This document shows, piece by piece, positions 16,850 through 32,238 of a stretch of DNA of 64,000 bases. The notes under the pieces are model-generated. The model worked only from the letters and a program-made list of their open reading frames with translations, had not been told where the DNA came from and searched no databases. The stretch lies in NCBI GenBank assembly GCA_030550585.1, contig JAUQPB010000005.1:36962-100961 (forward strand). The letters are read 5' to 3'. Source of the stretch: Thermoproteota archaeon. Lineage in GTDB: Archaea > Thermoproteota > Thermoprotei_A > Sulfolobales > Ignisphaeraceae. Position 1 is the stretch's first letter. Every line of letters begins with the position of its first letter. The translations under genes and the position numbers were made by a program.

Positions 16850-19267
16850 TTATGTAATGCCGAACCTCTTAAACACAAATACTTTAGCAGGATCGATACC
16901 AAGTGTGAATGCGGCTGAGTAGATTAGTGCAACAACTGTTTTATCGAGGTCTATCGGAGTTATTATAATTCCTACACAACCGAGAATTGTAAACGCCACT
17001 ATAACACCTATCATCGATGCTACCAGCTCTCTACCCGGTTTTGAACTCCAAAACCATTTTCTCTCCCTAACTATGAGCACTCTAAACTGGCTTGTAAAGA
17101 CCATTACAAGTAGTATGAATGTCTGCATTTGTTGCATGTTGAAGTGGTAAACTGTCGACCCTATGTAAATAGCTATAAGACCTTCTATGAGTAGCAACAA
17201 TCCTAGGATTGTTGAAGATAGTGCAAGTGCTCTGAATCTCCACTTACTCGGGTTTGTTGTTGGCTTTGCATTATCTGTTGCTAGAGACATTGTAGCAAAG
17301 TCGTTTGCGAAGACTAGGAGTGTCATGCCAAGCAGTGAAAGAACGTCGTATTTGAGTATTATGAACCCTATTACAAGTAGCAAAGTAAATTGGATTGTTT
17401 TTGAAACTTTGTTTATTATCCATGTTAATGCCCTCTGATAGACTTCTCTACCAGTTAGAAGAATGTCCGCAACCCCCTCTAGACCAGGTTTTAAAAGAAC
17501 TACACCTGCCGACGCTTTTGCAACGTCTGTTGCATTGGCAACAGCTATGCCGAGCTCGGCCTGCTTTAGTGCAGGTGCATCATTTACACCGTCTCCCATA
17601 ACCCCTACGAAGTGGCCATTGCTTTGCAGACTTTTCACTATAATGTATTTGTCTTCTGGATAGACCTCCGCAAATATATCAGCTTCTTCAACGAGCACTC
17701 TTCTGCTGTTCTCATCGGCTTTCTTCAATTCGTTGACTGTTACAACCTTCTCTCCAATTCCAACCATTTTAGCGACTTCTCTCGCTACAGCAACATTGTC
17801 TCCTGTGACCATCTTAGGCCTTATTCCAACGCTCTTCATCTTTTCTACGAGTTCTCTAGAGTTTTGTCTAGGAGGGTCGAAAAGTGCTATGATACCAGCT
17901 AACCTATATTTGCCAGATCCATACTCTTTTATGGCGACAGCTAGAGATCTGTACCCTCTGTTGGCAAACTCTTCAACTGTTTTCATAGCCTCCGCAACCT
18001 CGGGGCTGTTGCCAACGAGTTCTGCTATTATTTGAGGAGCTCCTTTTGTAACGAGAAACCTCCTACCCTTTATATCTACTATAGCCTCTGTTCTCTTGGT
18101 TGATGGGTCAAATGGTCTGAATTCTACTATGCTATACCTTTTTCTGGGCAGATTCAGCTTCTTGGCAAACTCAACAATTACATTATCTATCTGATCCTTG
18201 CCCTCCTGGCTAGACGAATAAAATGCATATTCAATCACATCCTCTTTTGTAAAACCATTCAACGGCTTGACATCTACTATAGAAAGTCTGTTCTCTGTTA
18301 TCGTACCAGTCTTGTCGAGGCATATAACATCAACAGAGGCTGCATCCTCTATAGCGCTAAGCCTAGTGACAAGCACATCTCTTGATGCGAGTCTAGAGGC
18401 TCCAACAGCCTGCATAATCGTTAAAACAGTTGGCAATGCAACTGGTACAGCACCCATCAATATTGTTACAGCGAATGTGGCTATGGCTATCGGCGTGTTC
18501 TTCAACCCTGTTACAACCGCAAATACAATTGCTATAGCTATGGCTGCTAACCCTATGTACATACTGTATCGAGTGATGACAAACATAACCTCTTGCTGAT
18601 GGGACTTGGGCTGAGCTATCTTAACAAGCTCAACTGTTCTCCCAAAATATGTGCTCCTCCCAGTATTGACAACAACTGCTTTGGCTCTGCCACTTCTAAC
18701 TATAGAGCCTGCGTAAACAATTCCACCAGCAGATATATCCACGGGTAGCGACTCTCCAGTAAGCATAGACTGGTCAACGGTAGCACTACCCTCGATGATC
18801 TTGCAATCGGCTGGCACAACATCGCCGATGCCGAGAGCAATAATGTCTCCGGGAACAAGATACTTAGCGTCTATCTGAACCCATTTACCATCTCTTAGGA
18901 CAACCGCCTTTAAAGCAAGCTTAGATTTCAATAGCTCTAAAACCCTCTTGCTCGACTTCTCATGATAAAAACCTATAACAGCATTGATAAACATTAAAGA
19001 GAATATGATTGAAGCCTCTATGTAGTGGCCAACAGCAATAGATAGTACAATTGCTATTTCAAGCAGCCATGCCATGGGATTCCAAAATCTCTTCAAAAAA
19101 CTCTTTACAGCACTCTCTCTTCTCTCCTCAACATAGTTAAGTCCATAGACCTTCAGTCTCCTATTAACCTCCTCAGATGACAAGCCATTCAAACTTGTTT
19201 GCAGAACATTCAGAGTGTCCTCAATACTGAGAGCCTCATAATCTTTGGTACTTCTAATCTGTGAAAT
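16850..19267 (-). CDS. P-type IIIA plasma-membrane H+-ATPase; probable ATT start at 19267 (ORF track start 19192)
   Basis: DQSMLTGES, PVALPTV, CLDKTGT, KGAPQ, DPPR, MVTGD, GDGVNDAPALKQA and NDFATM. Confidence 0.92.
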   Translation of the reverse strand: MSQIRSTKDYEALSIEDTLNVLQTSLNGLSSEEVNRRLKVYGLNYVEERRESAVKSFLKRFWNPMAWLLEIAIVLSIAVGHYIEASIIFSLMFINAVIGFYHEKSSKRVLELLKSKLALKAVVLRDGKWVQIDAKYLVPGDIIALGIGDVVPADCKIIEGSATVDQSMLTGESLPVDISAGGIVYAGSIVRSGRAKAVVVNTGRSTYFGRTVELVKIAQPKSHQQEVMFVITRYSMYIGLAAIAIAIVFAVVTGLKNTPIAIATFAVTILMGAVPVALPTVLTIMQAVGASRLASRDVLVTRLSAIEDAASVDVICLDKTGTITENRLSIVDVKPLNGFTKEDVIEYAFYSSSQEGKDQIDNVIVEFAKKLNLPRKRYSIVEFRPFDPSTKRTEAIVDIKGRRFLVTKGAPQIIAELVGNSPEVAEAMKTVEEFANRGYRSLAVAIKEYGSGKYRLAGIIALFDPPRQNSRELVEKMKSVGIRPKMVTGDNVAVAREVAKMVGIGEKVVTVNELKKADENSRRVLVEEADIFAEVYPEDKYIIVKSLQSNGHFVGVMGDGVNDAPALKQAELGIAVANATDVAKASAGVVLLKPGLEGVADILLTGREVYQRALTWIINKVSKTIQFTLLLVIGFIILKYDVLSLLGMTLLVFANDFATMSLATDNAKPTTNPSKWRFRALALSSTILGLLLLIEGLIAIYIGSTVYHFNMQQMQTFILLVMVFTSQFRVLIVRERKWFWSSKPGRELVASMIGVIVAFTILGCVGIIITPIDLDKTVVALIYSAAFTLGIDPAKVFVFKRFGIT

Positions 19268-19437
19268 AGTCCCTCACCTCATTTGCCTGTTCTTTAGAGA
19301 CCGGGTTAAAAATATGGCAAAAATAATATAAGGCTATAGTGAGATTATAGTTGTATACCACGGCTAATAACTTGCGTTTGTAAAGCACCGAAAATACTGA
19401 TGCCAAGCTTAGTCAAAGGGATTTCACGGTATGCACT

Positions 19438-20781
19438 TTAATCTAGTCTTGCAATGATGTAGAGCGAGGCGGCTAACGGCATCATAGATAGTGCGAAAGC
19501 TGGTATAAAGCCTTCGATGGCATCTAATATGACGAGAATGCTGAAGATTATTGCAATGGCTATAACCGTTATGCTTTTCGATCCCTCCTCCTGTTTTGGG
19601 GTAACCTTATACGGTATTCTAACCCCGATTAGCGAGGCTATTACATATGGTATGATAGCTATAGATGTTACTGTTGTTAGTGCCGAGGCTCTTCCAGATA
19701 CATATGGCATGTCATAGCCGCCATATTCTCTGTAGAATTTATACACATTTATCGACTCTATGGCTAGAGAGGCTAGGAATAGTATTAGAAGAGTCAAATC
19801 GGCAACTGTTATCTTCGAATGCTCTACAAGTGGCGAGATTCCGGCTAGGATGAACCCTATAGCCGATAAAACAGCTATTATTGGCTGGAGTATGTATAGC
19901 AAGGCCTCTAGCTTTACAATAGTTTTTGCCCTCGACTTTAGAATGTGTTTGCCGAACCTTTTAAGAACGTCTGTTGTTCCATAGGCCCACCTCTTCTGCT
20001 GAATTAGATAAGCCTCAACAGTTTTTGGAGCACCAACACACATAGGCTCTATAAGCCTTGGCATAACACCTTTCTCTAGAAGCTGTGTACCAAGCCAAAT
20101 ATCATCTTGTATAACATCGATTCTGTAAAGCCCTATATCAGCCAGTATATCCCTTCTAATCGCTGTGCCACTGCCGAGAGGATATATGAACAGCCCCTTC
20201 GAAAACTTGTTTTTGTAGTATAGCCAACTCCCATACTCTGTTAAGAAGGCTATTGTGCTAGAGGATCTGGTTGAGCCCTTGTCGCAGACTCTCCACCAAG
20301 AGATGCAAACATCTTTGCATTTCAGCATAGACTCTATAGCCTCTTTCGAGGGATAACCATCGACATCAATAACAGAGACTGTGCCTCCAATAGAGAATTT
20401 TATACCATCATTTATAGCCCCATTTCTACCACCAAAACCATTAAACCTCCTCATAACAAATATAGAATCCCACATCACCATATCCTCTAAAACATCGTAG
20501 AATGCCCCGCTATCAGAGTAGTCAGCTACTACAACACATTCAAACACCTCTCCAAGAGATTCGTGGAGTTGGTAGAAGTGCTTTGTATACTCTCTAACAA
20601 TATCTTTTGGCTCATTCTTTACGGGGGTTATAATCGAGAGAAACCCCTGCCCTCTATCCCTAGACATCGGTTCGCCAATTACAAGACGTTTTGAAGGTTT
20701 TGAAAGTATTGTGTGGTATATGCTGACAATTAATAGTGACAAGGATATCATGGCAAGCGAGATTGTAAATAACATGAGCAT
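19438..20781 (-). CDS. Membrane GT2 glycosyltransferase, cellulose-synthase-like
   Basis: DVD, QDD and QQKRW (QxxRW) motifs with flanking TM helices. Confidence 0.85.
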   Translation of the reverse strand: MLMLFTISLAMISLSLLIVSIYHTILSKPSKRLVIGEPMSRDRGQGFLSIITPVKNEPKDIVREYTKHFYQLHESLGEVFECVVVADYSDSGAFYDVLEDMVMWDSIFVMRRFNGFGGRNGAINDGIKFSIGGTVSVIDVDGYPSKEAIESMLKCKDVCISWWRVCDKGSTRSSSTIAFLTEYGSWLYYKNKFSKGLFIYPLGSGTAIRRDILADIGLYRIDVIQDDIWLGTQLLEKGVMPRLIEPMCVGAPKTVEAYLIQQKRWAYGTTDVLKRFGKHILKSRAKTIVKLEALLYILQPIIAVLSAIGFILAGISPLVEHSKITVADLTLLILFLASLAIESINVYKFYREYGGYDMPYVSGRASALTTVTSIAIIPYVIASLIGVRIPYKVTPKQEEGSKSITVIAIAIIFSILVILDAIEGFIPAFALSMMPLAASLYIIARLD

Positions 20782-20938
20782 TTACCCGCAGAGCCTAAAC
20801 ACTGTCACCACTTTGAAAGAGGGGGTCTAATAAACCTAGTATCCAATTGATCAACATCTCCATCAATTCAAGTCCACGCTTTTGGTCAAATACTTATAAA
20901 CTTGTGGTACTACAAGTAGGCTTGGGGTGCTACAAGCA

Positions 20939-22042
20939 ATGCTATTCGATCTACAGCCAAAAACAAGTAGGAGAGATCTATACGATTTTGATAGAGAGCT
21001 TGAAGAGCTGATTAAGAGTATCGAGTTGAATCCGCTAACAGTTGTTGTAGGCATTAGGAGATCTGGAAAGACATCTCTTCTGAGAGTTGCATTAAACGAG
21101 TGTGGCTATCCCTACATATATATAGACCCTAGATTCTATTCAGCACCTACATACAGAGATTTTGCATATATTTTAAGGAATTCTGTTGAAGATTTTCTGA
21201 GAAGATACGGTGGTGTGTATAGGAGGATTGTAGAGATTCTAAAGAATGTTAAGGGAATTTCAATAGATTTGCCAACTCTGTCTGTAGAGGTTAGCTGGAG
21301 AAGAGGTGAGAGGATGGAGATCGGGGAGCTGTTAATAGCTCTTGATAATCTGGCTAAGGATATTAAGAAGCCAATTGTTATAGCCATTGATGAGGCTCAA
21401 GAGCTTTCTAAAATTACTTGGATGCCAATTACAAGGCTATTCGCATATGCATATGACAATCTCAGGAATTTGAGAATTGTTTTGACAGGATCGGAGATAG
21501 GTGTTCTATTCAAGTTCCTGGGGATAGAGGACCCCAGCTCTCCTCTCTATGGAAGATACATACACGTGATTAAGACGAGGAGACTATCTAGAGAAGAGTC
21601 CATGGACTTTCTCGAAAAAGGCTTTTCCGAGTTAGGCATAAACATCCCCCACAACATTATTGAAAGAGCTGTAGATGAACTCGACGGCATTATAGGTTGG
21701 CTAACACTGTTTGGCTATACATGCTACCTAAACCCAGGCACCTGTGTAGAGAACATCGACAAGATTCTTGAGCAGGCTATTAAAATAGGTAGAGAAGAGC
21801 TGGAGAAGTTCCTATCAACAAGTAGAAGCACCAGATACAAAACATTGCTAAAAATCCTCACAACAGAGAGAAGGTGGAGCGAAATAAAAATGTTGTTAGA
21901 GACTGAAGAGAGCAGAACAATAAACGATAGAACCCTCTACGAACATCTAAAAAGATTGATAGATCTATCTATAGTTGAAAAGAAAAACGATTCATACATA
22001 ATATCAGACCCCATCCTGCGAAAAGCAGCCCAACTCCTCTAA
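20939..22042 (+). CDS. Archaeal P-loop ATPase (ATPase_2-like) with C-terminal wHTH
   Basis: LYDFDRELEEL, GIRRSGKTSL, IDEAQE, TGSE.G and LDGIIGWL. Confidence 0.88.
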   Translation: MLFDLQPKTSRRDLYDFDRELEELIKSIELNPLTVVVGIRRSGKTSLLRVALNECGYPYIYIDPRFYSAPTYRDFAYILRNSVEDFLRRYGGVYRRIVEILKNVKGISIDLPTLSVEVSWRRGERMEIGELLIALDNLAKDIKKPIVIAIDEAQELSKITWMPITRLFAYAYDNLRNLRIVLTGSEIGVLFKFLGIEDPSSPLYGRYIHVIKTRRLSREESMDFLEKGFSELGINIPHNIIERAVDELDGIIGWLTLFGYTCYLNPGTCVENIDKILEQAIKIGREELEKFLSTSRSTRYKTLLKILTTERRWSEIKMLLETEESRTINDRTLYEHLKRLIDLSIVEKKNDSYIISDPILRKAAQLL

Positions 22043-22464
22043 ACAATACAATGAATATCCATAGCAATGTCGAGCTCCATATCCTACAATCATGCAATGC
22101 GCAACCAGATATTAAAATTCTGCACTGCATGCACTAGCATTGGGAAGAGATTAGCCCATGAAACTGTTTTTATATGCTATTCTTCTACGCTATGGTGATG
22201 CTCATGCAAAGTTGCAGAATATGCAAAATAAAAACATGTTTAAACCTTATTAAATATTCTATGATTTGCTTATTTTGCAAAAAAACTTTTAAGCTAGGGC
22301 ATTGAAGTATGTAAAGGTGTCTTTAATTGTTTTGGTGTTGCCTATTGTATCAATAGAAAATGTATTTGAAAAAGAGTTTGAAAAATGTGGAAAAGAGATG
22401 GTGAAACAGCGGTTTCATAATCTCATAGAGTGTGGTAAACCTATCTACATGTTCTAGGGTGTAT

Positions 22465-23772
22465 ATGATGAAGGTGAATGTGTGGAACCCTAGTGTTGAG
22501 TTGTTGTCTAGGGATGAGCTTGATAAGATAAAGCTTCAGAGACTCAAGGAAGTTATCCACAGAGTATACAACAACAACCAATTCTACAGGAAAAAGATGA
22601 AAGAAAAAGGATTGAAACCAGAAGACATAAAAACATTAGAAGACATCAAAAAACTGCCATACACAACAAAAGAAGAGCTAAGGGAGCTTTATCCATACGG
22701 CGCTTCTGTGGTGCCCTTAGACAGCTTAGCTGAGGTTAGGGCTAGCAGTGGTACTACCGGAAAGCCAACTGTAACCCTATACACTATGAAGGACATTGAG
22801 AATTGGAGTGAGGTTATGGCTAGAAGCCTTGTTGCAACCAATATTGTTAAAGGCGATATACTTCTAATTGCATATAACTACCACATGTTTACAGGTGGCT
22901 TCGGTTTTCACTATGGAGCTTTGAAAGTCGGTGTAACAGCAATACCAGCTGGCGTAGGTTTTACACAGAGACAGGTAATGTTGATAAAGGATCTTGGTGT
23001 AACAGCAATTACTAGTGTTCCTAACTATGCTATTAGGTTGGCTGAGGTTGCTTTTGAGATGGGTGTAGACCCTGCTAGAGATACTAGGGTTAGGAAAGGC
23101 GTTTTCGGAGCTGCTCCGTGGAGCGAGGAGATGAGGAGGAGAATTGAGAAGATATGGGATATGCAAGCATACGATATGTACGGCTTGAGCGAGTTGTGGG
23201 GCCCTGGGGTAGCGATAGAGTGTGTATATAAGAGTGGTCTTCATGTTTGGGAGGATCACTTTATTGTTGAGGTTGTTGATCCGAAGACTGGTGAGCCTGT
23301 AGATGTTGAGGAGAAGGGGGAGCTAGTATTCACAACACTAACAAAAGATGCAATGCCACTAATAAGATATAGAACAAGAGACATATCGAGAATACTAGAC
23401 GAAAACAAATGCCAATGCGGAAGAACACACACAAAAATAGACAGAATACAAGGAAGAACAGACGACATGTTCATAATAAACGGGGTGAATGTATGGCCCT
23501 CTGCTGTTGAGGAGGTTCTTCTCAAAGAGCCTCTTGTAGCTCCCTACTACCAGATTGTTATAGATAGGGTTGATGCATTAGATAGGATGACTGTTTTCGT
23601 TGAATCGAGAACAAAGCTTGGCGAAAACGATAAAATTGCTTTAGCTAAGAAGCTTGAGTATGAGTTGAAGGAGGTTATATTGGTTACGCCAAGGGTTGAG
23701 GTTGTCGACCCTGGGACGCTACCCAGATTCGATGGAAAGCCAAGGGTAGTTGTTGATAAAAGGGCGTTGTAG
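22465..23772 (+). CDS. paaK: Phenylacetate-CoA ligase family protein, copy 1
   Basis: SSGTTGKP, FTGGFG.HYG, YGLSE..GPG, PLIRYRTRD and GRTDDM...GVN. Confidence 0.9.
   Translation: MMKVNVWNPSVELLSRDELDKIKLQRLKEVIHRVYNNNQFYRKKMKEKGLKPEDIKTLEDIKKLPYTTKEELRELYPYGASVVPLDSLAEVRASSGTTGKPTVTLYTMKDIENWSEVMARSLVATNIVKGDILLIAYNYHMFTGGFGFHYGALKVGVTAIPAGVGFTQRQVMLIKDLGVTAITSVPNYAIRLAEVAFEMGVDPARDTRVRKGVFGAAPWSEEMRRRIEKIWDMQAYDMYGLSELWGPGVAIECVYKSGLHVWEDHFIVEVVDPKTGEPVDVEEKGELVFTTLTKDAMPLIRYRTRDISRILDENKCQCGRTHTKIDRIQGRTDDMFIINGVNVWPSAVEEVLLKEPLVAPYYQIVIDRVDALDRMTVFVESRTKLGENDKIALAKKLEYELKEVILVTPRVEVVDPGTLPRFDGKPRVVVDKRAL
22486..23739 (+). repeat. Four blocks identical (inverted) to paaK copy 2: 22486-22686, 23023-23113, 23236-23486, 23670-23739
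   Basis: Read against the reverse complement of 29209-29009, 28672-28582, 28459-28209 and 28025-27956; lengths 201, 91, 251 and 70 bp, no mismatch seen. Confidence 0.92.
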
Positions 23773-23774
23773 CT

Positions 23775-25631
23775 TTGCCAAAGAGAAAGACTATTCTTGG
23801 AGAGCCCAACTCGATAGCGTTTCTACTTGGTAACGAGGCTATAGCTAGAGGAGCCATAGAGTATGGCATTGGTGTTGCAGCAGCATATCCGGGAACACCG
23901 TCAAGCGAAATTGTAGAGTCTTTGGCTAGTGTCGCCAGCGATCTGGGGATATATGTCGAGTGGAGTGTAAACGAGAAAACAGCTTTTGAATTGGCATACG
24001 CTGCTGCAATGAGTGGTGTACCAAGCTTAACAGCTATGAAGCATGTTGGTCTAAATGTAGCTGCCGACCCCTTGATGACAAGTGCTTATACAGGTGTCAA
24101 GGCGGGTTTCATAATTGTTACAGCCGATGATCCCTATATGCATAGTAGCCAAAACGAGCAGGACAACAGATGGGTTGGTCTACATGCCTATATACCGGTT
24201 TTAGAGCCTGCCAACCCCCAAGAGGCAAAGGATCTGACATATCTTGGGCTGGAATACTCTGAGAAGCTGGGTCATCCAATAATACTTAGAAGTGTTACTA
24301 GAGTGAGTCACGCTAGGGGGCTGGTCAGACTAGGCCCCTTAAGACCCCCTAGAACGGTAGGTTCTTTCCCTAGAGAGCCACAGAAATGGGCTGTTGTGCC
24401 GGCACATGCAAGGAAGATGAAAATAGATGTTCTGAGGAGATGGAGAGAAATCGAGGATGTCTTTGCAGAGTTTCCATACAACAAAATCGATGATAGCAAC
24501 TCAAATATACTTATTGTAGCTTCTGGCATTGGATACCCGTATGCTAAAGACGCTCTCAAAATTGTTGGTGTAAAAGCAAAGATTTTGAAAGTGTCCACGC
24601 CAGTACCCCTGCCAAGAAAACTAGTTGAAAAGGCTGTGAATGGCATTGAGAAGATTCTGGTTGTTGAAGAAACCGATCCTGTTGTCGAAATGCAGCTAAA
24701 GTCTATTCTATTCGATTTACATATCGATGTAGAGGTTCATGGAGCTGACTATCTTGGTAGAAAAGGAGAGCTAACAATAGATAGAGTTGCAGAGGCAATA
24801 GCAAAAATAGCTGGTGTAAGCTGGAGTCCTCCAAAACCAATTGAGGTACCTATCAATGTTCCTCCTAGAAAGCCCATTCTATGTCCTGGATGCCCCCACA
24901 GAGCAACGTTCTATGCCTTGATAATGGCAGCTAGAGAGCTTGGTGTAGACCCTATATACAGTGGTGATATAGGTTGCTATAGCCTTGGCATCGACCCCCC
25001 ATTCAATGCACAAGATACGATAACCAACATGGGTGGAAGCATAGGTCTTGCAAACGGCTTCTCACATACTGTAAAGAACAGACCGGTGGTTGCAATTCTA
25101 GGAGATTCAACATTCTTTCATGCTGGGTTGCCACCCCTGCTAAATGCTGTCTATAACAGAGCACCAATGCTTGTACTTGTGCTAGATAATGAGACTACTG
25201 CTATGACCGGGTTCCAGCCCCATCCCGGAACAGGCTTGACGGCTATGGGAGGAAAGGGTAGGAAGATATTGATAGAAGAGGTTGCAAAGGCTATGGGGGC
25301 CGACTATGTGGATGTTTTCGATCCATATGATGTTAGAAAAGCTATAGAGTCCATTAAAACTGGGCTCAAGGTTGCTATGGATGGTGGCGTAGCTGTTTTG
25401 GTTGCTAGAAGAGTCTGCTCGTTGCTAGCAGCAAGGCTGGGCTTGGCAAGAGATAGGTATTTTATTGATAGCAACAGATGTGTTGGTTGTAGCGTTTGTA
25501 CAAATATATTAGCTTGCCCAGCTATAGTTATCGGAGAAGACAATAAACCACGTATAATAGAATCGCTCTGTAGTGGATGTGGCGTATGCGCCCAGATATG
25601 CCCATTCCAAGCAATAACAAAGAGAGGGTAA
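23775..25631 (+). CDS. iorA: Indolepyruvate:ferredoxin oxidoreductase alpha subunit
   Basis: LLGNEAIARG, YPGTPSSE, KHVGLNVAADP, SSQNEQD, CPGCPHR, GDIGCY, GDSTFFH and two C-terminal 4Fe-4S motifs. Confidence 0.95.
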   Translation: MPKRKTILGEPNSIAFLLGNEAIARGAIEYGIGVAAAYPGTPSSEIVESLASVASDLGIYVEWSVNEKTAFELAYAAAMSGVPSLTAMKHVGLNVAADPLMTSAYTGVKAGFIIVTADDPYMHSSQNEQDNRWVGLHAYIPVLEPANPQEAKDLTYLGLEYSEKLGHPIILRSVTRVSHARGLVRLGPLRPPRTVGSFPREPQKWAVVPAHARKMKIDVLRRWREIEDVFAEFPYNKIDDSNSNILIVASGIGYPYAKDALKIVGVKAKILKVSTPVPLPRKLVEKAVNGIEKILVVEETDPVVEMQLKSILFDLHIDVEVHGADYLGRKGELTIDRVAEAIAKIAGVSWSPPKPIEVPINVPPRKPILCPGCPHRATFYALIMAARELGVDPIYSGDIGCYSLGIDPPFNAQDTITNMGGSIGLANGFSHTVKNRPVVAILGDSTFFHAGLPPLLNAVYNRAPMLVLVLDNETTAMTGFQPHPGTGLTAMGGKGRKILIEEVAKAMGADYVDVFDPYDVRKAIESIKTGLKVAMDGGVAVLVARRVCSLLAARLGLARDRYFIDSNRCVGCSVCTNILACPAIVIGEDNKPRIIESLCSGCGVCAQICPFQAITKRG

Positions 25632-26245
25632 AGATAGAAGCTGTTTTTACTGGCGTTGGAGGACAAGGAATAATCACTATGGGCACTATCCTAGGTGTTG
25701 CATGCAGTAAAATAGGCTTGAATATAATAACAGCTGAAACACATGGAATGTCTCAGAGAATGGGCATGGTGGACTTCTTTGTTAGAATTGGAGATGTTGA
25801 AGCACCTCTAGTCCCACAGGCATCGGCAGATATAGTAGTGTCTTTAGAGATGATTGAAGCGCTAAGATCTGTTAGACATCTAAAGAGATGCGGATGGCTA
25901 TTGGTCGCAGATATATATATACCTCCACCATATGTAGAGAATGTTCCATCGAGAAAAGATATAGTTACTGTGCTAGAGAGGCTGCCAATAAACTCTATTC
26001 TAATCAATGTAGAGGAAATAGTAGAAAAACTGAATGATAGCCGCGTTGTTAACATGGCAATGCTAGGAGCCTTCATGGCCATAGAGGATGTATCGAAGAT
26101 AATACCAGTTACACTGGTTGAAGATGTTGTTGAAGAAAGGCTCGGCCCAATAAATAGAGAGGCGTTTGGAATGGGGTATAAGCAGGCTGTGAAAAAGATA
26201 AAAGATGGGGATCTCATTTCGAGATGTGCAAAAACTAATGTGTGA
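25628..26245 (+). CDS. iorB: Indolepyruvate:ferredoxin oxidoreductase beta subunit; start codon uncertain (GTA/ATA)
   Basis: GVGGQG, AETHGMSQR.G, LE..EALR and NM.MLGA; follows iorA directly. Confidence 0.9.
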   Translation, partial: VKIEAVFTGVGGQGIITMGTILGVACSKIGLNIITAETHGMSQRMGMVDFFVRIGDVEAPLVPQASADIVVSLEMIEALRSVRHLKRCGWLLVADIYIPPPYVENVPSRKDIVTVLERLPINSILINVEEIVEKLNDSRVVNMAMLGAFMAIEDVSKIIPVTLVEDVVEERLGPINREAFGMGYKQAVKKIKDGDLISRCAKTNV

Positions 26246-26291
26246 ATACATTGATAATGTGTTTTTGAGGTGTTGCACACAAAATTTCATT

Positions 26292-27782
26292 TCATCTTGA
26301 TCTAGATACTATGCCATCCCTTCTTAGCATGCTCAATCCAACAAATGATGCTAATGAGATTGTTGCAGCTGGTATTGTTGGATGAATCCATGTGGTTCTG
26401 TACATATATATGTACCAGATTATTCCTGTGACAGCTCCTGCAATCATAGATGCTACAGCCCCCTCTTTACTTGATTTTCTCCAGTAAAGTCCTAGAATCA
26501 CTGGTCCAATGAAACACGCAAAGATCGTTCCAAATGATGCACTAACAATGTCTATAATCAGCTTGTTGTCTATTAAAGCTATTGGTAGTGGTAACAAAGC
26601 GAAAACAGCTACAGTAACTTTGGATAAGCGTATCAATGTTTCCTCCTCTAGGCTTCTGTTAAGCAAGACTATATCTCTTATAACTGTATTCGAAATTGCA
26701 AGCACGGTTGCAGCTATTGTGGATAGCGATGCTGCTATTGGTGCTGAGAGTATTAGTCCTCTAATACCTTCGGGCACTATCAGCATCACCATATTGGGTA
26801 TAACCCAGTCGCTATCTTTCATCAGTTGCGAAATTTGTTGTGGACTTAGGTGGGGATCTAATATTAGATGTGCGTATATCCCAAGTGAGAATACTAGCAT
26901 AGCATACAATGATATAAGTATAGGTCCTATGATCCTCCCTCTCGAAATAGCTCTAGAATCTTTAGCCGCATAAAACTGGAACAACAAATTGGGCAAGGCT
27001 ATTTGAGCCATGCCTATAGAGAATGTTACGCTCATTATCAGTGTTGGCACCAGTCCTTTTTCCATTGCTGGCGGAGGTCCCATACCATCCAGTCTCAACC
27101 ATAGCGCGCCTGGTTTGCCGAGTATCGTCATGTTCGAGATTTTCAACAGGCCATTGATAGGCCCTCCAACACTGCCCATAACGTATGTGAATGTTAGGGC
27201 GGCTGCAATGAGCATTAAGGAGCCTAGAAACAGGTTATTGATGACAGCGCTCCTCATCCCTCCTAACATAAGATATACTATAACCGGAAGCGCCATGATC
27301 AACAACGCGTAGCCATATCCTATCCCCAGTTGCGTAGCCAGCACTATTGCCCCTCCCTTGTAGACCCCGGCGAGATAAAACGTGAATAGAGTTGCTATAA
27401 CTGTTGACGCTATCATTCTCGCCAGCGTGCTATCATATAGATTGCCTATCAATTCTGGTATGCTTGCCGATTTCGTCTTCACTACATACTCATAGAGCTT
27501 GTCTGCAACAAGCATCCAGAGCAACACAGCCCCTATAACGTGCCACGCTATTAACCAAGCTCCAAAGCCCAGGTTGTATAGATATGTTGCCCCGCCTCCG
27601 CTTAGAAACGATGCAGCACTAAAGTATGTTGCCATTATCGAGAATGATAGAAGCCATGGCCCCAGCGTTTTATTTGCAAACATAAACCCCATGAATGATT
27701 TGCTAGCTCTATAGCCTGCAAACCCAATGACTATAGTCAATACCATTACAGCAATCATAATTATTGAATCTATAGAGGTCAT
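26292..27782 (-). CDS. Sodium:solute symporter (SSS/ActP-PanF-like)
   Basis: S..ATYFSAASFL.G, AASLST and GLYWRK.SK.GA..SM; about 13 TM helices. Confidence 0.9.
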   Translation of the reverse strand: MTSIDSIIMIAVMVLTIVIGFAGYRASKSFMGFMFANKTLGPWLLSFSIMATYFSAASFLSGGGATYLYNLGFGAWLIAWHVIGAVLLWMLVADKLYEYVVKTKSASIPELIGNLYDSTLARMIASTVIATLFTFYLAGVYKGGAIVLATQLGIGYGYALLIMALPVIVYLMLGGMRSAVINNLFLGSLMLIAAALTFTYVMGSVGGPINGLLKISNMTILGKPGALWLRLDGMGPPPAMEKGLVPTLIMSVTFSIGMAQIALPNLLFQFYAAKDSRAISRGRIIGPILISLYAMLVFSLGIYAHLILDPHLSPQQISQLMKDSDWVIPNMVMLIVPEGIRGLILSAPIAASLSTIAATVLAISNTVIRDIVLLNRSLEEETLIRLSKVTVAVFALLPLPIALIDNKLIIDIVSASFGTIFACFIGPVILGLYWRKSSKEGAVASMIAGAVTGIIWYIYMYRTTWIHPTIPAATISLASFVGLSMLRRDGIVSRSR

Positions 27783-27895
27783 AAAGTCTTTGCACCCTTC
27801 TCGCTACGATCCTTATACACAGCATAGAAAAAGCCAATAACCAAAACTATGAGCGATATAGCATAGCCTAAGATAATAAGGGGATCTATATCCAT
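27779..27895 (-). CDS. Small single-TM accessory protein of the SSS transporter (38 aa)
   Basis: Manual translation MDIDPLIILGYAISLIVLVIGFFYAVYKDRSEKGAKTL; its stop overlaps the symporter ATG (ATGA); below the ORF-track cutoff. Confidence 0.75.
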   Translation of the reverse strand: MDIDPLIILGYAISLIVLVIGFFYAVYKDRSEKGAKTL

Positions 27896-27922
27896 AGAGT
27901 TCAGCCCCTTTCTAAAGTTTGG

Positions 27923-29230
27923 CTATTCCTCAGACTTGATCACAACCCTTTTTGCCTTTCCATCGAATCTGGGTAGCGTCCCAGGGTCGACAACCTCAAC
28001 CCTTGGCGTAACCAATATAACCTCCCTCAGCTGTTTTTCAAGATCCTTAGAAAGCATCATCTTTTCTGCTTCACTAAGTTTTTTGGAGGTCTCTACCACT
28101 ATGGTTAAAATATCTCCTGAAGGTCTCTTGCTAATTACTATCTGATACTCGTTGCCTACAAGCTTGCTTTGCATTAGCACATTTTCAATTGCTTGTGGAT
28201 ATATGTTAACCCCGTTTATTATGAACATGTCGTCTGTTCTTCCTTGTATTCTGTCTATTTTTGTGTGTGTTCTTCCGCATTGGCATTTGTTTTCGTCTAG
28301 TATTCTCGATATGTCTCTTGTTCTATATCTTATTAGTGGCATTGCATCTTTTGTTAGTGTTGTGAATACTAGCTCCCCCTTCTCCTCAACATCTACAGGC
28401 TCACCAGTCTTCGGATCAACAACCTCAACAATAAAGTGATCCTCCCAAACATGAAGACCGTTGTGATACTGACAATCGATTGCCGCTCCAGGCCCGTAAA
28501 GCTCTGCCATGCCATAAATATCAAATGTCTCCATGTTCCATATCTCTTCGATTTTCTTTCTCAGAGAATCACTCCACATTTCAGCTCCGAAAACGCCTTT
28601 CCTAACCCTAGTATCTCTAGCAGGGTCTACACCCATCTCAAAAGCAACCTCAGCCAACCTAATAGCATAGTTTGCTATTCCAGCAAGCATAGTCGTGCCA
28701 AGCTTGATCATCGTATATATCTGCCTCTTCGAAAATCCTGGCCCTGTCGGAATTATTGTTGCCCCTATTCTTCTCGCCCCATAGAAAAATCCAAAGCCAC
28801 CTGTAAACAAACTGAAGCTTGGCGTAATTTGGAGAACATCCCTCTTTGTAAGCCCTGCAGCCGCTAGGCTTCTAGCCATTATCTCGCTCCAGTTCTCAAT
28901 ATCCTTAATCGTATAGTACATGAATATTGGCTCGCCAGTTGTACCAGATGTTGCGTGAACCTCTACAACATTTTGATATTCTGTCACCAGAAAGCCGAAT
29001 GGCATATTCTCCCTTAGCTCTTCTTTTGTTGTGTATGGCAGTTTTTTGATGTCTTCTAATGTTTTTATGTCTTCTGGTTTCAATCCTTTTTCTTTCATCT
29101 TTTTCCTGTAGAATTGGTTGTTGTTGTATACTCTGTGGATAACTTCCTTGAGTCTCTGAAGCTTTATCTTATCAAGCTCATCCCTAGACAACAACTCAAC
29201 ACTAGGGTTGTAGATCCAGCTATCAGGCAT
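27923..29230 (-). CDS. paaK: Phenylacetate-CoA ligase family protein, copy 2
   Basis: HATSGTTGEP, FTGGFG, GAEMW, YGMAE.YGPG, PLIRYRTRD and C-terminal GKAKRV. Confidence 0.9.
   Translation of the reverse strand: MPDSWIYNPSVELLSRDELDKIKLQRLKEVIHRVYNNNQFYRKKMKEKGLKPEDIKTLEDIKKLPYTTKEELRENMPFGFLVTEYQNVVEVHATSGTTGEPIFMYYTIKDIENWSEIMARSLAAAGLTKRDVLQITPSFSLFTGGFGFFYGARRIGATIIPTGPGFSKRQIYTMIKLGTTMLAGIANYAIRLAEVAFEMGVDPARDTRVRKGVFGAEMWSDSLRKKIEEIWNMETFDIYGMAELYGPGAAIDCQYHNGLHVWEDHFIVEVVDPKTGEPVDVEEKGELVFTTLTKDAMPLIRYRTRDISRILDENKCQCGRTHTKIDRIQGRTDDMFIINGVNIYPQAIENVLMQSKLVGNEYQIVISKRPSGDILTIVVETSKKLSEAEKMMLSKDLEKQLREVILVTPRVEVVDPGTLPRFDGKAKRVVIKSEE
27956..29209 (-). repeat. Partner copies of the four identical blocks shared with paaK copy 1
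   Basis: See the repeat feature at 22486..23739. Confidence 0.92.
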
Positions 29231-29460
29231 TTGAGAACACCTTGAGAATGTATCTTGGTTTATCGACAAGTTGATTACTGTTATCCTCAAAGCCTGATAC
29301 TACTTTAACACTGTTTTCCTCAATTGGTTCATAAAATCTGTTTGTATACTTTATCTCCATTGGCGCATAATTTCACCGAAGGAGTATGTATCTGTTTGGA
29401 GGGGTTTAAAAATGTTTTGTTACCATTGATCGCAATATATCATTGCAGACTGTTTACGGG

Positions 29461-30951
29461 TTACATGAGGTCTATTTGTATAACTGCTTTGGGGTCTGGC
29501 TCAACAAATTTGAATGAGACTATAGAGTTTCCATAGCTATGCAGATCAATGATGTTCTTCCCATTGTTGAGACTGTGTTGATCCTCGAATGCTTGTTGAC
29601 TTGGCAATCCAATGTCGTATTCGAAGATCTTGAGCTTGTTGGGCTTGGAGGCTCTTATAACCATCTTAGCCTCTCTATAGCCAGCTAGTGGTATTCCACC
29701 AAATGTTTTGTTGTCTACCTGTGTGCCGAGGATCTTTATCCTAATTGGTGGTGGGGGCGAGTTTAGGATGCTTGTTGGTATTGAGAATATTCCTCTGTAG
29801 CCCCCATCTATTGGCTGTGCGTCATACCTGCTGCTATTGGCCATAGTGTTGTATGCAAGCAGAATCTTATCTCCAACGATCTCAATACCCGTTATCCTTG
29901 CCCCAAAGGCTCCAACAATTCTGGCTGTTGGAGGGGTTATGTATACAAGCAGACTTGGGGCTACAATAGTGTTTGTTGCTAGGAACATCATTTTCTCGAA
30001 ATCATTCGTCGGTTTGACCACGTTTTCTGTAAAGGCATTGAACGCAACCAGGATGCCTCCTCCAATTGGCTTGGCCATTGTTCTCCTAGCGTTATAGCCG
30101 GACTTGACAAAGTCAAACATTCTCACAAATTTTACACTCTCTATAGACTCGTCAACGGGGTTCCCAACAAATACCCCTCCTCTAACAAATAAAAAGAATC
30201 TCCCGTATGCCGATGCTGTAACCCCTGTAAGAGGAGACTCGACAGAGTCCCCATCGACAGATCTCTGCGCTAGGTCTCCAAAGTATACTGTTTTAAGTTT
30301 GTTCTCTACAAGATCAATGCATTGGATACCGCTGACCCCTTGCACCCAGTTTTCAAGGATATCAAAACATGCATGATCATATAATATAGAGCCTTTTTGC
30401 GCAGGTCTCGACGATAGTTGCTTATAGCTACCGCCCCTTCTATCGATTTGATAAACACCTAGGTTGATCATGCCATCTCCTCTGGCAAGCAAAAGTCTAT
30501 CGTTTATCTCATCATATATTATCTCCGATACCTCTCCAACCCAGTCAGTCACATGATGTAGGCTCTCCTTCCACAAAAGCCTTACCGAATCCTCTCTAAT
30601 GTCATATACATGAACATGGCTAAACTTGTTTACAAATGATATTGTTGCAAGCGATCCACTCTCCCTGCCCCTATATACGGCAGGTGCATGAACCCACCCA
30701 CCAAAGTATATAAAATCGTCAACAGCTTCAACAGCGTTATAGGTATCGCCACCAGATGTTGGTAGGGGGCCTACAAGCTCAAAGTTATACCTCCTCACAT
30801 AGCCTTCCCTAATATTAATGAAATTTGCTTTAGCCTCAAAAGCCACCGTATAGTAGAGCAAGCCCCTATGATATTTCAAGCCGAATATTCCGCCACTACC
30901 CCATTCGGGTCCGTATCTAGGGCTATAAAGCTCGAGCCAGCTGAAATCCAC
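29461..30951 (-). CDS. Conserved crenarchaeal protein, DUF2139-like
   Basis: PRYGPEWGSGGIFGLKYH and SGGDTYNA motifs recalled from this family. Confidence 0.7.
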   Translation of the reverse strand: MDFSWLELYSPRYGPEWGSGGIFGLKYHRGLLYYTVAFEAKANFINIREGYVRRYNFELVGPLPTSGGDTYNAVEAVDDFIYFGGWVHAPAVYRGRESGSLATISFVNKFSHVHVYDIREDSVRLLWKESLHHVTDWVGEVSEIIYDEINDRLLLARGDGMINLGVYQIDRRGGSYKQLSSRPAQKGSILYDHACFDILENWVQGVSGIQCIDLVENKLKTVYFGDLAQRSVDGDSVESPLTGVTASAYGRFFLFVRGGVFVGNPVDESIESVKFVRMFDFVKSGYNARRTMAKPIGGGILVAFNAFTENVVKPTNDFEKMMFLATNTIVAPSLLVYITPPTARIVGAFGARITGIEIVGDKILLAYNTMANSSRYDAQPIDGGYRGIFSIPTSILNSPPPPIRIKILGTQVDNKTFGGIPLAGYREAKMVIRASKPNKLKIFEYDIGLPSQQAFEDQHSLNNGKNIIDLHSYGNSIVSFKFVEPDPKAVIQIDLM

Positions 30952-31026
30952 ATTACAACACCTGTAAATAGAGGATTAGATTGAAGTGTGCGTTTTTAAA
31001 CATTATCGAGTTTATGTAAGTAGATA

Positions 31027-32238
31027 CTATTGTGGTAGAGGGTTTCTGTATAGCTTATCTATCAAAGAGTAGAACATCATTGACAAAACCAGTGAAAAAG
31101 CCGACAAAAGCACAGAGTATCTTGCTGAACTTGTTAATGCAATTATATAGCCACTTACTACGGATGAAGCTATAGTGGCAACAGATGGTGCTAGATTGTA
31201 TATAGAGCCAAATTTTCCAATGAAATCTGTGGGTATAACATCATTGAGTATAGCCCAAAAAGCTGGAGTTGCAATTCTATATGCAATCAAAGAAAATGTT
31301 ATGGAGATTATCCTGATTATCGGTATGCGAAGGAGAGCTGAAGCCAAAAGCGCTGTAGCTGTTGTGGTTAATCCTATGTAAATTATGCTCACCTTCCCCC
31401 TCAAACCCCCAATCCTGTCAGAGTAAAGTCCTGCCAAAACTTCTGCAACACTTCCCAGAACTGCGATAAGCAACATATGTAAAACAAGATCAGCATAGCC
31501 AAATTTTAGATCATTTAATACATATGTTGAAAGCCAATTAATCATAAATGTCCATGTATACATGGCAAAGAAGAATGCTAGAAACAGTATTGCCAATATT
31601 CTACCATCAACACCCCTGTTTCCAAAACTGCCTTGAGAACCTACAAAGCTTTTCCCGCCAACCCCTCCTTTACCCGTATATCCTCTGACAAAACCACGTA
31701 GAGCTATAAAAACAATTGGTGTATAGATAAAACCTATGGCACCTACAATAACCATAGCATTTCTCCAGTCATGAGCAAAAAACATCAATATGTATGTTAA
31801 TGCAAGACCTATTATCGAACCGATATCATAAAGAGAGGTTGCATATCCATATCCAAGCCTAGCCAGATGCATTGATGTTATTTTTGCACATATGGGCCAG
31901 ACAAACGGTATAGTCAAACTAAACAATAGTCTAACAGTTGAAAGGGTGATTACATCATTAACAAAACCTGTTAGAAGTGTTAACAGCGATTGAAAACCCA
32001 TAACAAACGATATAAACCATGTAACATCAATTCTATCTACACTCCTTCCAACAGTTAATACACTAACTATCGATGCAAGCGTCCATATAGCCATTAAAAC
32101 ACCTGCAAAATCATAGCCAATACGAATATCATTTACAATATCTGGTAGGACTGTTCCAAATAATGCTAGTTGTGCAAATGCTATTGTTGTTATCCCTAAT
32201 AAAAGCAGTGATAGGGTATTCAATACCGATGACACCAA
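31027..32238 (-). CDS. MFS transporter
   Basis: About 12 TM helices, with motif-A-like GRSVDRI and GLYSDRIGG. Confidence 0.85.
   Translation of the reverse strand: MVSSVLNTLSLLLLGITTIAFAQLALFGTVLPDIVNDIRIGYDFAGVLMAIWTLASIVSVLTVGRSVDRIDVTWFISFVMGFQSLLTLLTGFVNDVITLSTVRLLFSLTIPFVWPICAKITSMHLARLGYGYATSLYDIGSIIGLALTYILMFFAHDWRNAMVIVGAIGFIYTPIVFIALRGFVRGYTGKGGVGGKSFVGSQGSFGNRGVDGRILAILFLAFFFAMYTWTFMINWLSTYVLNDLKFGYADLVLHMLLIAVLGSVAEVLAGLYSDRIGGLRGKVSIIYIGLTTTATALLASALLRIPIIRIISITFSLIAYRIATPAFWAILNDVIPTDFIGKFGSIYNLAPSVATIASSVVSGYIIALTSSARYSVLLSAFSLVLSMMFYSLIDKLYRNPLPQ

Follow-up and report, generated by a model that had tools for sequence, protein, structure and literature searches.

Organization of the paaK-iorAB locus

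We have examined a pair of convergent genes for PaaK-family aryl-acetate-CoA ligases, paaK-A and paaK-B, together with the genes enclosed between them, in a 64,000-nucleotide (nt) stretch of DNA from a Thermoproteota archaeon of the family Ignisphaeraceae (GenBank assembly GCA_030550585.1, contig JAUQPB010000005.1, positions 36,962 to 100,961 of the forward strand), referred to below as the window. The two genes form a mosaic in which long stretches of identical DNA alternate with stretches that have diverged widely. paaK-A (22465..23772, + strand) is the first gene of a unit that continues with iorA (23775..25631, + strand) and iorB (25577..26245, + strand), coding for the alpha and beta subunits of indolepyruvate:ferredoxin oxidoreductase (IOR), with iorA starting 3 nt past the paaK-A stop and iorB overlapping the end of iorA. 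On the opposite strand, paaK-B (27923..29230, - strand) is followed after 140 nt by a gene for a sodium:solute symporter family transporter (26292..27782, - strand), the ends of the two convergent units being 46 nt apart. The full open reading frames (ORFs) of the ligases extend over 22432-23772 (+) and 27923-29290 (-), within which the ATGs at 22465 and 29230 are the likely starts, both proteins being 435 amino acids (aa) in length. These are the only two paaK copies in the genome (1.76 Mb in 7 contigs), and the sequencing runs that contain the stretch are labelled as hot-spring metagenomes.

A mosaic of identical blocks and diverged segments

Alignment of paaK-A and paaK-B at the DNA level (MAFFT) yields identity at 1020 of 1368 columns (74.6%). 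Four runs without a single mismatch, of 201, 91, 251 and 70 bp and 613 bp in total, were reproduced position for position as they had been reported in a preliminary description of this DNA. Block 1 (201 bp; A 22486..22686, +; B 29009..29209, -) encodes aa 8-74, the N-terminal helical microdomain, and is followed by segment 1 (336 bp, 57.7% A/B identity; A 22687..23022, +; B 28673..29008, -). Block 2 (91 bp, aa 187-216; A 23023..23113, +; B 28582..28672, -) precedes segment 2 (122 bp, 61.5% identity; A 23114..23235, +; B 28460..28581, -), which contains the motif A5 region. Block 3 (251 bp, aa 258-341; A 23236..23486, +; B 28209..28459, -) carries RYRTRD, the CxCGRTH stretch and the GRTDDM hinge and precedes segment 3 (183 bp, 52.5% identity; A 23487..23669, +; B 28026..28208, -) in the C-terminal domain, while block 4 (70 bp, aa 403-425; A 23670..23739, +; B 27956..28025, -) carries the PRFDGK stretch. 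The divergence of the segments extends to the protein level, and the peptide differences cited in the preliminary description are found in the alignment. Segment 1 contains the P-loop SSGTTGKP and the YNYHMFTGGFGFHYG stretch in A as compared with TSGTTGEP and the PSFSLFTGGFGFFYG stretch in B, and segment 2 contains GAAPW and YDMYGLSELWGPG in A as compared with GAEMW and FDIYGMAELYGPG in B.

This arrangement of matches is far removed from that obtained by chance, as in 10,000 shuffles of the match and mismatch columns the longest run was 50 (mean 22.5) versus the 251 observed, and the four longest runs together reached at most 119 versus 613. A repeat search identified the paaK block arms, in inverted orientation, as the only repeats of at least 50 nt in the 64-kb window, with a spacing between paired copies ranging from 4,216 nt (block 4) to 6,322 nt (block 1). 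The blocks start at an equal offset (21 nt) from both ATGs and the two proteins are of equal length; thus, a crossover in any block would stay in frame.

Read depth across the blocks

Identity of this kind would be spurious if the blocks were a collapsed consensus of non-identical copies, a concern already raised in the preliminary description, or if the second copy had been mis-assembled. The genome is a metagenome-derived short-read assembly with contig ends overlapping by 127 nt, and blocks 1 and 3 exceed that assembly k. The overlaps are of exactly 127 nt between contigs C1 and C3, C3 and C7, and C5 and C6, the signature of a k=127 de Bruijn assembly, and since blocks 1 and 3 are longer than this, their linkage in the assembly would rest on read pairs. 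We placed Logan contigs (k=31) from four runs on positions 22000-29700. In run X1, which may be the sample the genome came from, block 3 is represented by one 245-nt k=31 unitig at a depth of 434 versus 187-225 in the neighbouring pieces, and no alternative letters occur anywhere in the stretch. Run X3, from another study, likewise yields a single unitig for block 3, of 251 nt, at a depth of 428 versus 182-235 in the flanks. Block 3 is therefore present at approximately twice the flank depth in both studies. The X3 unitig has one letter different from the window, a variant that in the simplest reading is carried by both copies of that strain. The k=31 contigs stop precisely where the blocks begin and end, the behaviour expected of true repeats that exceed k. 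In addition, three metagenome contigs and six species with independent assemblies show the same mosaic, every species having a block sequence of its own. The unitig depths and this recurrence contradict a collapsed consensus, and an origin of the blocks in the assembly is so improbable as to be negligible.

Conservation of the mosaic in the genus

The genus sample comprised 17 genomes including the present one (G000), 15 of them with a paaK match and six (G000, G002, G004, G005, G006 and G007) with both genes on one contig. The layout is the same in all six, with paaK-A, iorA and iorB followed by a convergent paaK-B, the symporter being present or absent. Exact A/B runs are observed at the same places in every one of these genomes, measuring 245-280 bp at block 3, 71-93 bp at block 2 and 65-201 bp at block 1. 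Block 3 is 99.2-100% identical between the two copies within each of the six genomes, as compared with 82-88% between G000 and four more distant species and 98% between G000 and G007. A codon-by-codon map placed the edges at the same codons in 6/6 genomes: the first codon of block 2 is the N of NYAIRL, block 3 opens with GLHVWEDH or one codon earlier and block 1 ends at the LRE motif. The extent of homogenization varies in the outer blocks, block 1 being homogenized over its full length in G000, G007 and G006 and in its 3' half only in G005, G004 and G002, while block 4 is homogenized in G000, G007 (93%) and G006 (89%) and not in G005, G004 and G002 (69-73%). Inside the segments, residues that are conserved between A and B use different codons.

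In two further species the inner contigs (G009:C40 and G012:C8) terminate in exact inverted repeats of 141 nt that lie within block 3. Contigs of G008 and G014 have both their ends immediately past the block 3 edge, and a G001 contig begins inside block 3, at one end only. Comparison with related genomes, a check that the preliminary description had suggested, thus detected the mosaic in each of the six species in which both genes lie on one contig. Only some species of the genus have the symporter between the two operons. A symporter gene is found upstream of a single B-type gene in G010, and G015, a complete genome of the genus, has no paaK match.

Outside the genus, G025 and G032 possess one paaK adjoining ior. 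Among 80 loci from other lineages, the closest paaK genes belong to metagenome-assembled genomes of Pyrodictium/Pyrodictiaceae (58-59%). Two paaK genes within 8 kb were found at 14 of the 80 loci, all in direct orientation and 11 adjoining ior, and the longest exact run between them is 27 bp. Thus, two ligases beside iorAB constitute a common layout, whereas, within the set examined, the mosaic is confined to this genus.

Phylogeny and substitution in blocks and segments

The blocks and the segments give different trees, both of which were computed with all rows kept. In the maximum-likelihood tree of blocks 2+3 (342 columns, 14 rows), each A pairs with the B of the same genome, and the approximately unbiased (AU) test rejected both an all-A clade (p 6.5e-13) and an all-B clade (p 6e-7). 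In the tree of segments 1+2+3 (641 columns), an A clade (support 100/99) and a B clade (100/100) are resolved, each containing (G000,G007) and ((G005,G004),G002), with G006 weakly placed in the B clade (66/72).

Synonymous divergence (dS) between A and B, computed inside and outside the blocks as had been suggested, is 0 in all four blocks and ranges from at least 1.4 to saturation outside them, with values of 1.44 in segment 1, saturation in segment 2 and 2.73 in segment 3. Between G000 and G006, dS in the blocks is 0.38-1.3, indicating that the blocks do evolve and are then homogenized. A comparison of G000 with G007 over blocks 1-3 identified 17 sites at which the two copies agree while the genomes differ, 6 singletons and 1 site of another kind; conversion has therefore acted since these two genomes split. 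Additional tracts are visible in G002, as a 36-bp exact run in segment 1, and in G007 B, as four clustered changes toward the A state at 22788-22815. With the exception of this cluster and this run, micro-conversion inside segment 1 was not detected, as 14 of 37 polarized G000-G007 changes match the paralogue state, which is near chance. Combined, the genome-wise block tree, the dS of 0 and the 17 shared changes bear out the earlier proposal that identity at synonymous sites reflects recent or ongoing gene conversion, with the segments kept distinct.

The blocks could also be held identical, with no recombination involved, if purifying selection acted very strongly on the DNA or RNA as such, for instance on an embedded functional element, and block silent sites do change between species about half as often as those in the segments or iorA. 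However, the blocks are not frozen, as seen in their dS between G000 and G006 and in the 82-88% identity of block 3 between G000 and the more distant species, and the two copies of a genome carry the same changes at the 17 sites described above. Because the copies change jointly, constraint alone cannot be the cause, and we regard this explanation as highly improbable.

We conclude that the paaK-A/paaK-B mosaic results from long-lived, recurrent segmental gene conversion that is limited by selection and by the divergence of the segments, a reading to which we assign a probability of roughly 0.85.

In G000 as a whole, only four exact repeat pairs of at least 200 nt were detected, block 3 being the second longest and block 1 the fourth. 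The longest, of 560 nt (G000:C6:89909-90468 and 111662-112221; L143 and L144), sits in a second old duplication, which is 2.5 kb in length, 79.6% identical, in direct orientation and 22 kb apart, and which covers a gene pair encoding a xylose-isomerase-like TIM barrel (AP_endonuc_2) and an AGOG 8-oxoguanine glycosylase. Judged by its sequence, this duplication looks like another partly converted paralogue pair, suggesting that ectopic conversion in this organism is not unique to paaK.

Functions encoded by blocks and segments

Both ligases carry the PF00501 (AMP-binding) and PF14535 (AMP-binding_C_2) domains in a Pfam scan. Against TIGR02155, the PaaK equivalog model, paaK-A and paaK-B score 487.9 and 440.7 bits, respectively, both below the cut-off of 646.3, and they are therefore referred to as PaaK-family ligases with no assignment of phenylacetate specificity. 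The best solved relatives of paaK-A are 4R1L (E 6e-121) and 2Y27, and paaK-B matches 4R1L at E 2e-121; 2Y27 and 2Y4O match the ligases with E values from 1e-99 to 4e-119. The alignments with these three structures (4R1L, 2Y27 and 2Y4O) span approximately 420-430 residues and are thus nearly full length.

The P-loop residues described for PaaK1, Ser94, Thr96 and Thr97 (PMC8388817), map into segment 1 through the 2Y27 alignment. The P-loop, which is motif A3, reads SSGTTGKP in A, in the outgroups and in PaaK1, and TSGTTGEP in B, the K-to-E change being present in 6/6 B copies, while 4R1L, a Bacteroides homologue, has Asn at the Lys position. Of the acyl-pocket residues described for 2-hydroxyisobutyryl-CoA ligase (PMC8388817), Tyr164 pairs with the F of FTGG in segment 1, and Ser239 pairs with the G of FGA at the 3' edge of block 2. 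Phe146 of 4R1L (PMC9516798) had no unambiguous placement on the alignment. Measured against single-copy outgroups, it is B that has changed in segment 1 and A that has changed in segment 2.

The segments also take up most of what we assume to be the aryl pocket of PaaK1, namely Y136, F141, A147, A214, I236 and P245, a list that fits the 2Y27 sequence at a constant offset. Three of these six positions lie in segment 1, one at the edge of block 2 and two in segment 2, and several residues neighbouring them also differ between A and B. The suggestion in the preliminary description that the segments line the substrate and adenylate pocket agrees with these placements, as the P-loop and, on the assumed PaaK1 list, most acyl-pocket positions are found in the segments. 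The GK of PRFDGK in block 4 aligns to the C-terminal GK of 2Y27 and 4R1L. We take the PRFDGK lysine to be the A10 residue, and RYRTRD, GRTDDM and the C-terminal GK to represent the ANL motifs A7, A8 and A10.

The iorA product scores 740.6 bits against the IOR_alpha model (TIGR03336), above the curated cut-off of 650.9, and contains the Pfam domains TPP_enzyme_C, POR_N and Fer4. The iorB product contains the Pfam domain POR and matches the IOR_beta models at E 1e-32 to 1e-35, yet under their cut-offs. The transporter matches the Pfam domain SSF at E 4e-53, and an NCBIfam scan reached no equivalog for it. IOR interconverts arylpyruvates and arylacetyl-CoA (PMC5817080), and in Methanococcus maripaludis it functions in aromatic amino-acid synthesis from aryl acids (PMC3462420). 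A transporter and two ligases beside IOR would fit the uptake and activation of two kinds of aryl acid, and the substrates may be aryl acetates that, once imported, would supply IOR for the synthesis of aromatic amino acids, or the pathway may run in reverse.

Possible inversion and chimeric ligases

The genes flanking the pair were identified by Pfam. On the A side lies a gene for an archaeal ATPase (PF01637) with a C-terminal winged helix (20927..22042, + strand), a flank that is the same in G007. On the B side, a DUF2139 protein gene (29461..30951, - strand) lies upstream of and codirectional with paaK-B and was used as the marker of this flank when typing related contigs. DUF2139 is found at the same position in G007, L127 and L128, and adjoins chimeric genes in L129 and L134. 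The surroundings of the paaK pair vary by species, the ATPase and DUF2139 flanks being restricted to the G000/G007 group and a number of metagenome contigs. A shared upstream operator was not found, the regions 22043-22464 and 29231-29460 being without any common 9-mer. Each paaK upstream region contains an A/T-rich box resembling a TATA/BRE element approximately 185-190 nt before the ATG, which, if used, would give unusually long leaders for archaeal genes.

The preliminary description had proposed that the pair may serve as an inversion or shuffling cassette that operates with no recombinase of its own. Under such a scheme, frequent homology-driven flips would make chimeric ligases, re-assorting the P-loop, pocket and C-terminal segments and exchanging the promoter and head between IOR and the transporter, and the blocks would be kept identical because the switching is of benefit. 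After a crossover in a block, each head would still be attached to its own flank, and the parts downstream, iorAB or the transporter among them, would now follow the opposite head. The geometry permits this, as the inverted blocks are in frame and the upstream regions share no 9-mer, and among Salmonella tuf recombination events up to 50% are inversions (Hughes 2000, cited in PMC6735719). The slow silent-site change in the blocks could, in addition, reflect selection to keep them identical.

In all complete pairs, however, the arrangement is the parental one. Parental linkage, in which the A head, segments 1, 2 and 3 and iorAB occur together, was found across every block in 9/9 complete pairs (the six species genomes, L125, L127 and L128) and also in 2/2 contigs that join a complete A to iorA (G001:C101, which L126 duplicates, and G011:C45). 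Thus, the parental state persists across the compared species.

When 17 gene copies were typed in 13 metagenome loci, the distant relative L137 being left out, four were not parental. L129 is 96-98% identical to L127, which is itself parental, and has the inner segment flipped with respect to it: DUF2139 is followed by a gene composed of the B head and segment 1, block 2 and A segments 2 and 3 with the A tail, and then by iorA and iorB. In 45-nt windows, the 5' part of this gene is 91-100% identical to L127 B and the 3' part is 96-100% identical to L127 A. L132, approximately 99% identical to G002, is flipped at block 3, the B flank being followed by B sequence from the head to segment 2, block 3, A segment 3 and iorAB, while its facing end consists of B segment 3 and block 3 at the contig end. 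In L134, DUF2139 is followed by the B head, block 1 and A segments 1 and 2, and the sequence ends in block 3. L130 reads A head, B segments 1 and 2, A segment 3 and iorAB, with no B gene downstream. Two of these contigs therefore carry flipped inner segments (L129 and L132) and two carry swapped segments 1 and 2 (L130 and L134), and all four chimeras are intact ORFs. If module shuffling occurs, these four would be natural products of the process.

On the other hand, every recombinant switch lies in an exact repeat, so that assembler mis-joins are possible, and L129 and L130 derive from one assembly. L130 joins pieces that lie on three different G006 contigs and was set aside as evidence, since its downstream 5.3 kb matches two other G006 contigs and a many-copy repeat, as would be expected of either a rearranged strain or a chimeric contig. 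An insertion-sequence-like repeat (L130:14930-16420) is behind many of the 55 G006 matches of the 5.3-kb query, and several G006 contigs end in it. Strand-switching joints were not seen in the four runs, in which the k=31 contigs are too short to bridge the blocks, and their absence therefore says nothing on inversion. Many assemblies break at the blocks and the nine complete pairs agree with one another, so that a contig running through a block would as a rule have evidence behind it. The chance that one or more of the recombinant contigs are real is slightly better than even.

The Pfam scan of the 10 ORFs spanning 16850-32238 detected no integrase, invertase or transposase domain; in agreement with the preliminary description, neither a recombinase nor a regulator that would mark a dedicated switch is present among these neighbours. 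With respect to the proposal as a whole, the in-frame geometry stands and four contigs have the structures it predicts, whereas the parental linkage of all nine complete pairs speaks against an operating cassette. We consider it unlikely that the blocks are maintained for the benefit of switching, and equally doubtful that flips regularly re-assort the ligase modules.

Discussion

Segmental gene conversion accounts for the features of the paaK pair as follows. paaK-A and paaK-B are old paralogues, duplicated before the six compared species diverged, and recombination between the inverted copies, probably by the homologous pathway, repeatedly copies sequence from one into the other. Concerted evolution is confined to the same three or four 'chassis' blocks, which correspond to the N-terminal microdomain, the region leading up to motif A5, the A7/hinge region and the region of A10. 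Conversions that overwrite the segments would be removed by selection, the two ligases presumably having different jobs, and the 40-48% nucleotide divergence of the segments would now block the extension of conversion tracts. If these recombination intermediates were resolved as crossovers, the inner 4.2-6.3 kb would be flipped in frame, which probably occurs now and then as a by-product, with the parental arrangement being the one that persists.

Several points weigh against this reading. We infer the role of selection on the segments from their sequences, and only 2/6 positions of the assumed pocket list differ between A and B (Y vs P and M vs I). Segment 3 stays diverged although its location, in the C-terminal domain, is not obviously that of the pocket. 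The recombinant linkages in L129, L130, L132 and L134, if real, would make the arrangement less fixed than the nine pairs suggest. Finally, silent sites in the blocks change slowly. Pooled over two independent contrasts, G000 vs G006 and G005 vs G002, fourfold-site differences amount to 35/115 in the blocks, 85/146 in the segments and 250/436 in iorA (Fisher's exact test, blocks vs iorA p 3.5e-7, blocks vs segments p 1e-5). This slowness is not predicted by plain neutral conversion and calls for an extra force, such as biased correction or selection on the DNA. Protein constraint is not the reason, since segment 1 of A has a lower proportion of nonsynonymous differences (pN) than block 3, yet more than twice its proportion of synonymous differences (pS). 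Plastid inverted repeats and Y-chromosome palindromes exhibit a similar slowdown, which is usually put down to biased copy correction, and the paaK pair makes this parallel testable in a small genome.

Because the same edges recur in every species pair examined, the mosaic represents a natural map of the parts of a PaaK-type ligase that can be shared and those that must differ. Segments 1-3 are thereby candidate specificity determinants, and could guide enzyme engineering and the substrate assignment of many paaK-iorAB clusters. If the flipped contigs are real, the locus would also offer a tractable case in which homologous recombination re-pairs enzyme modules and operons with no dedicated recombinase.

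Comparison with known systems

Site-specific switches and shufflons, such as Hin/Gin, Rci and fim, employ short specific sites and a dedicated recombinase encoded nearby. Like these systems, the paaK pair has inverted repeats bracketing a segment whose flip would re-join coding parts and promoters. Unlike them, its repeats are coding stretches of 70-251 bp and no recombinase domain occurs in the 10 neighbouring ORFs.

Two ligase paralogues per genome, of the same fold family, are also present in Burkholderia cenocepacia, in which PaaK1 and PaaK2 are 69% identical and differ in Km and substrate range via the aryl pocket (PMC4498308, PMC9493321). The available text of these sources describes no identical-block mosaic, and the genes lie among those of the aerobic paa pathway, not beside iorAB.

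Long-lasting concerted evolution has been recognized where paralogues are closer within a species than orthologues are between species, in at least 5 species and including synonymous sites (Wang and Chen 2018, PMC6053082). That survey identified 26 genes, 7 of them archaeal and all of these from methanogens, mostly as whole-gene homogenization of complex subunits that was read as dosage balance; mtrA is another case in which concerted evolution is recurrent and long-lasting (PMC4632066). As in the surveyed cases, the paaK paralogues are closer within a genome than between species, synonymous sites included. In contrast to the whole-gene homogenization that the survey mostly describes, paaK is homogenized in parts only and the rest is kept apart. 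The words 'phenylacetate' and 'ligase' have 0 occurrences in the main text of the survey, and a full-text literature search, in which some matches were judged by title, found no prokaryotic report that connects gene conversion with phenylacetate-CoA ligase or paaK. In prokaryotes, long-lived concerted evolution is reported to be rare (PMC6053082), and the paaK pair adds a clear case from a hot-spring archaeon that is not a methanogen.

By analogy, the closest known case is tufA/tufB of Salmonella enterica, which are inverted and undergo concerted evolution by a conversion that proceeds processively and that large sequence differences block (PMC5485169). In both systems, inverted paralogues on one chromosome are kept alike by what in paaK would be, and in tuf is, homologous recombination, and the same recombination, which can invert the intervening DNA at tuf, may do so at paaK. 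Inversion at tuf costs 8% slower growth, so that the parental order persists in nature (PMC6735719). Conversion and inversion were measured experimentally for tuf, whereas in the archaeal paaK pair conversion is read from sequences and inversion is a candidate process. The tuf genes are near-identical throughout (12 differences in 1,185 nt) and 762 kb apart, whereas the paaK genes are 4-6 kb apart and 75% identical, with identical blocks mixed with old, diverged functional segments. As a consequence of this mosaic structure, a crossover between the paaK genes, unlike one between the tuf genes, would make chimeric enzymes and re-pair the operons.

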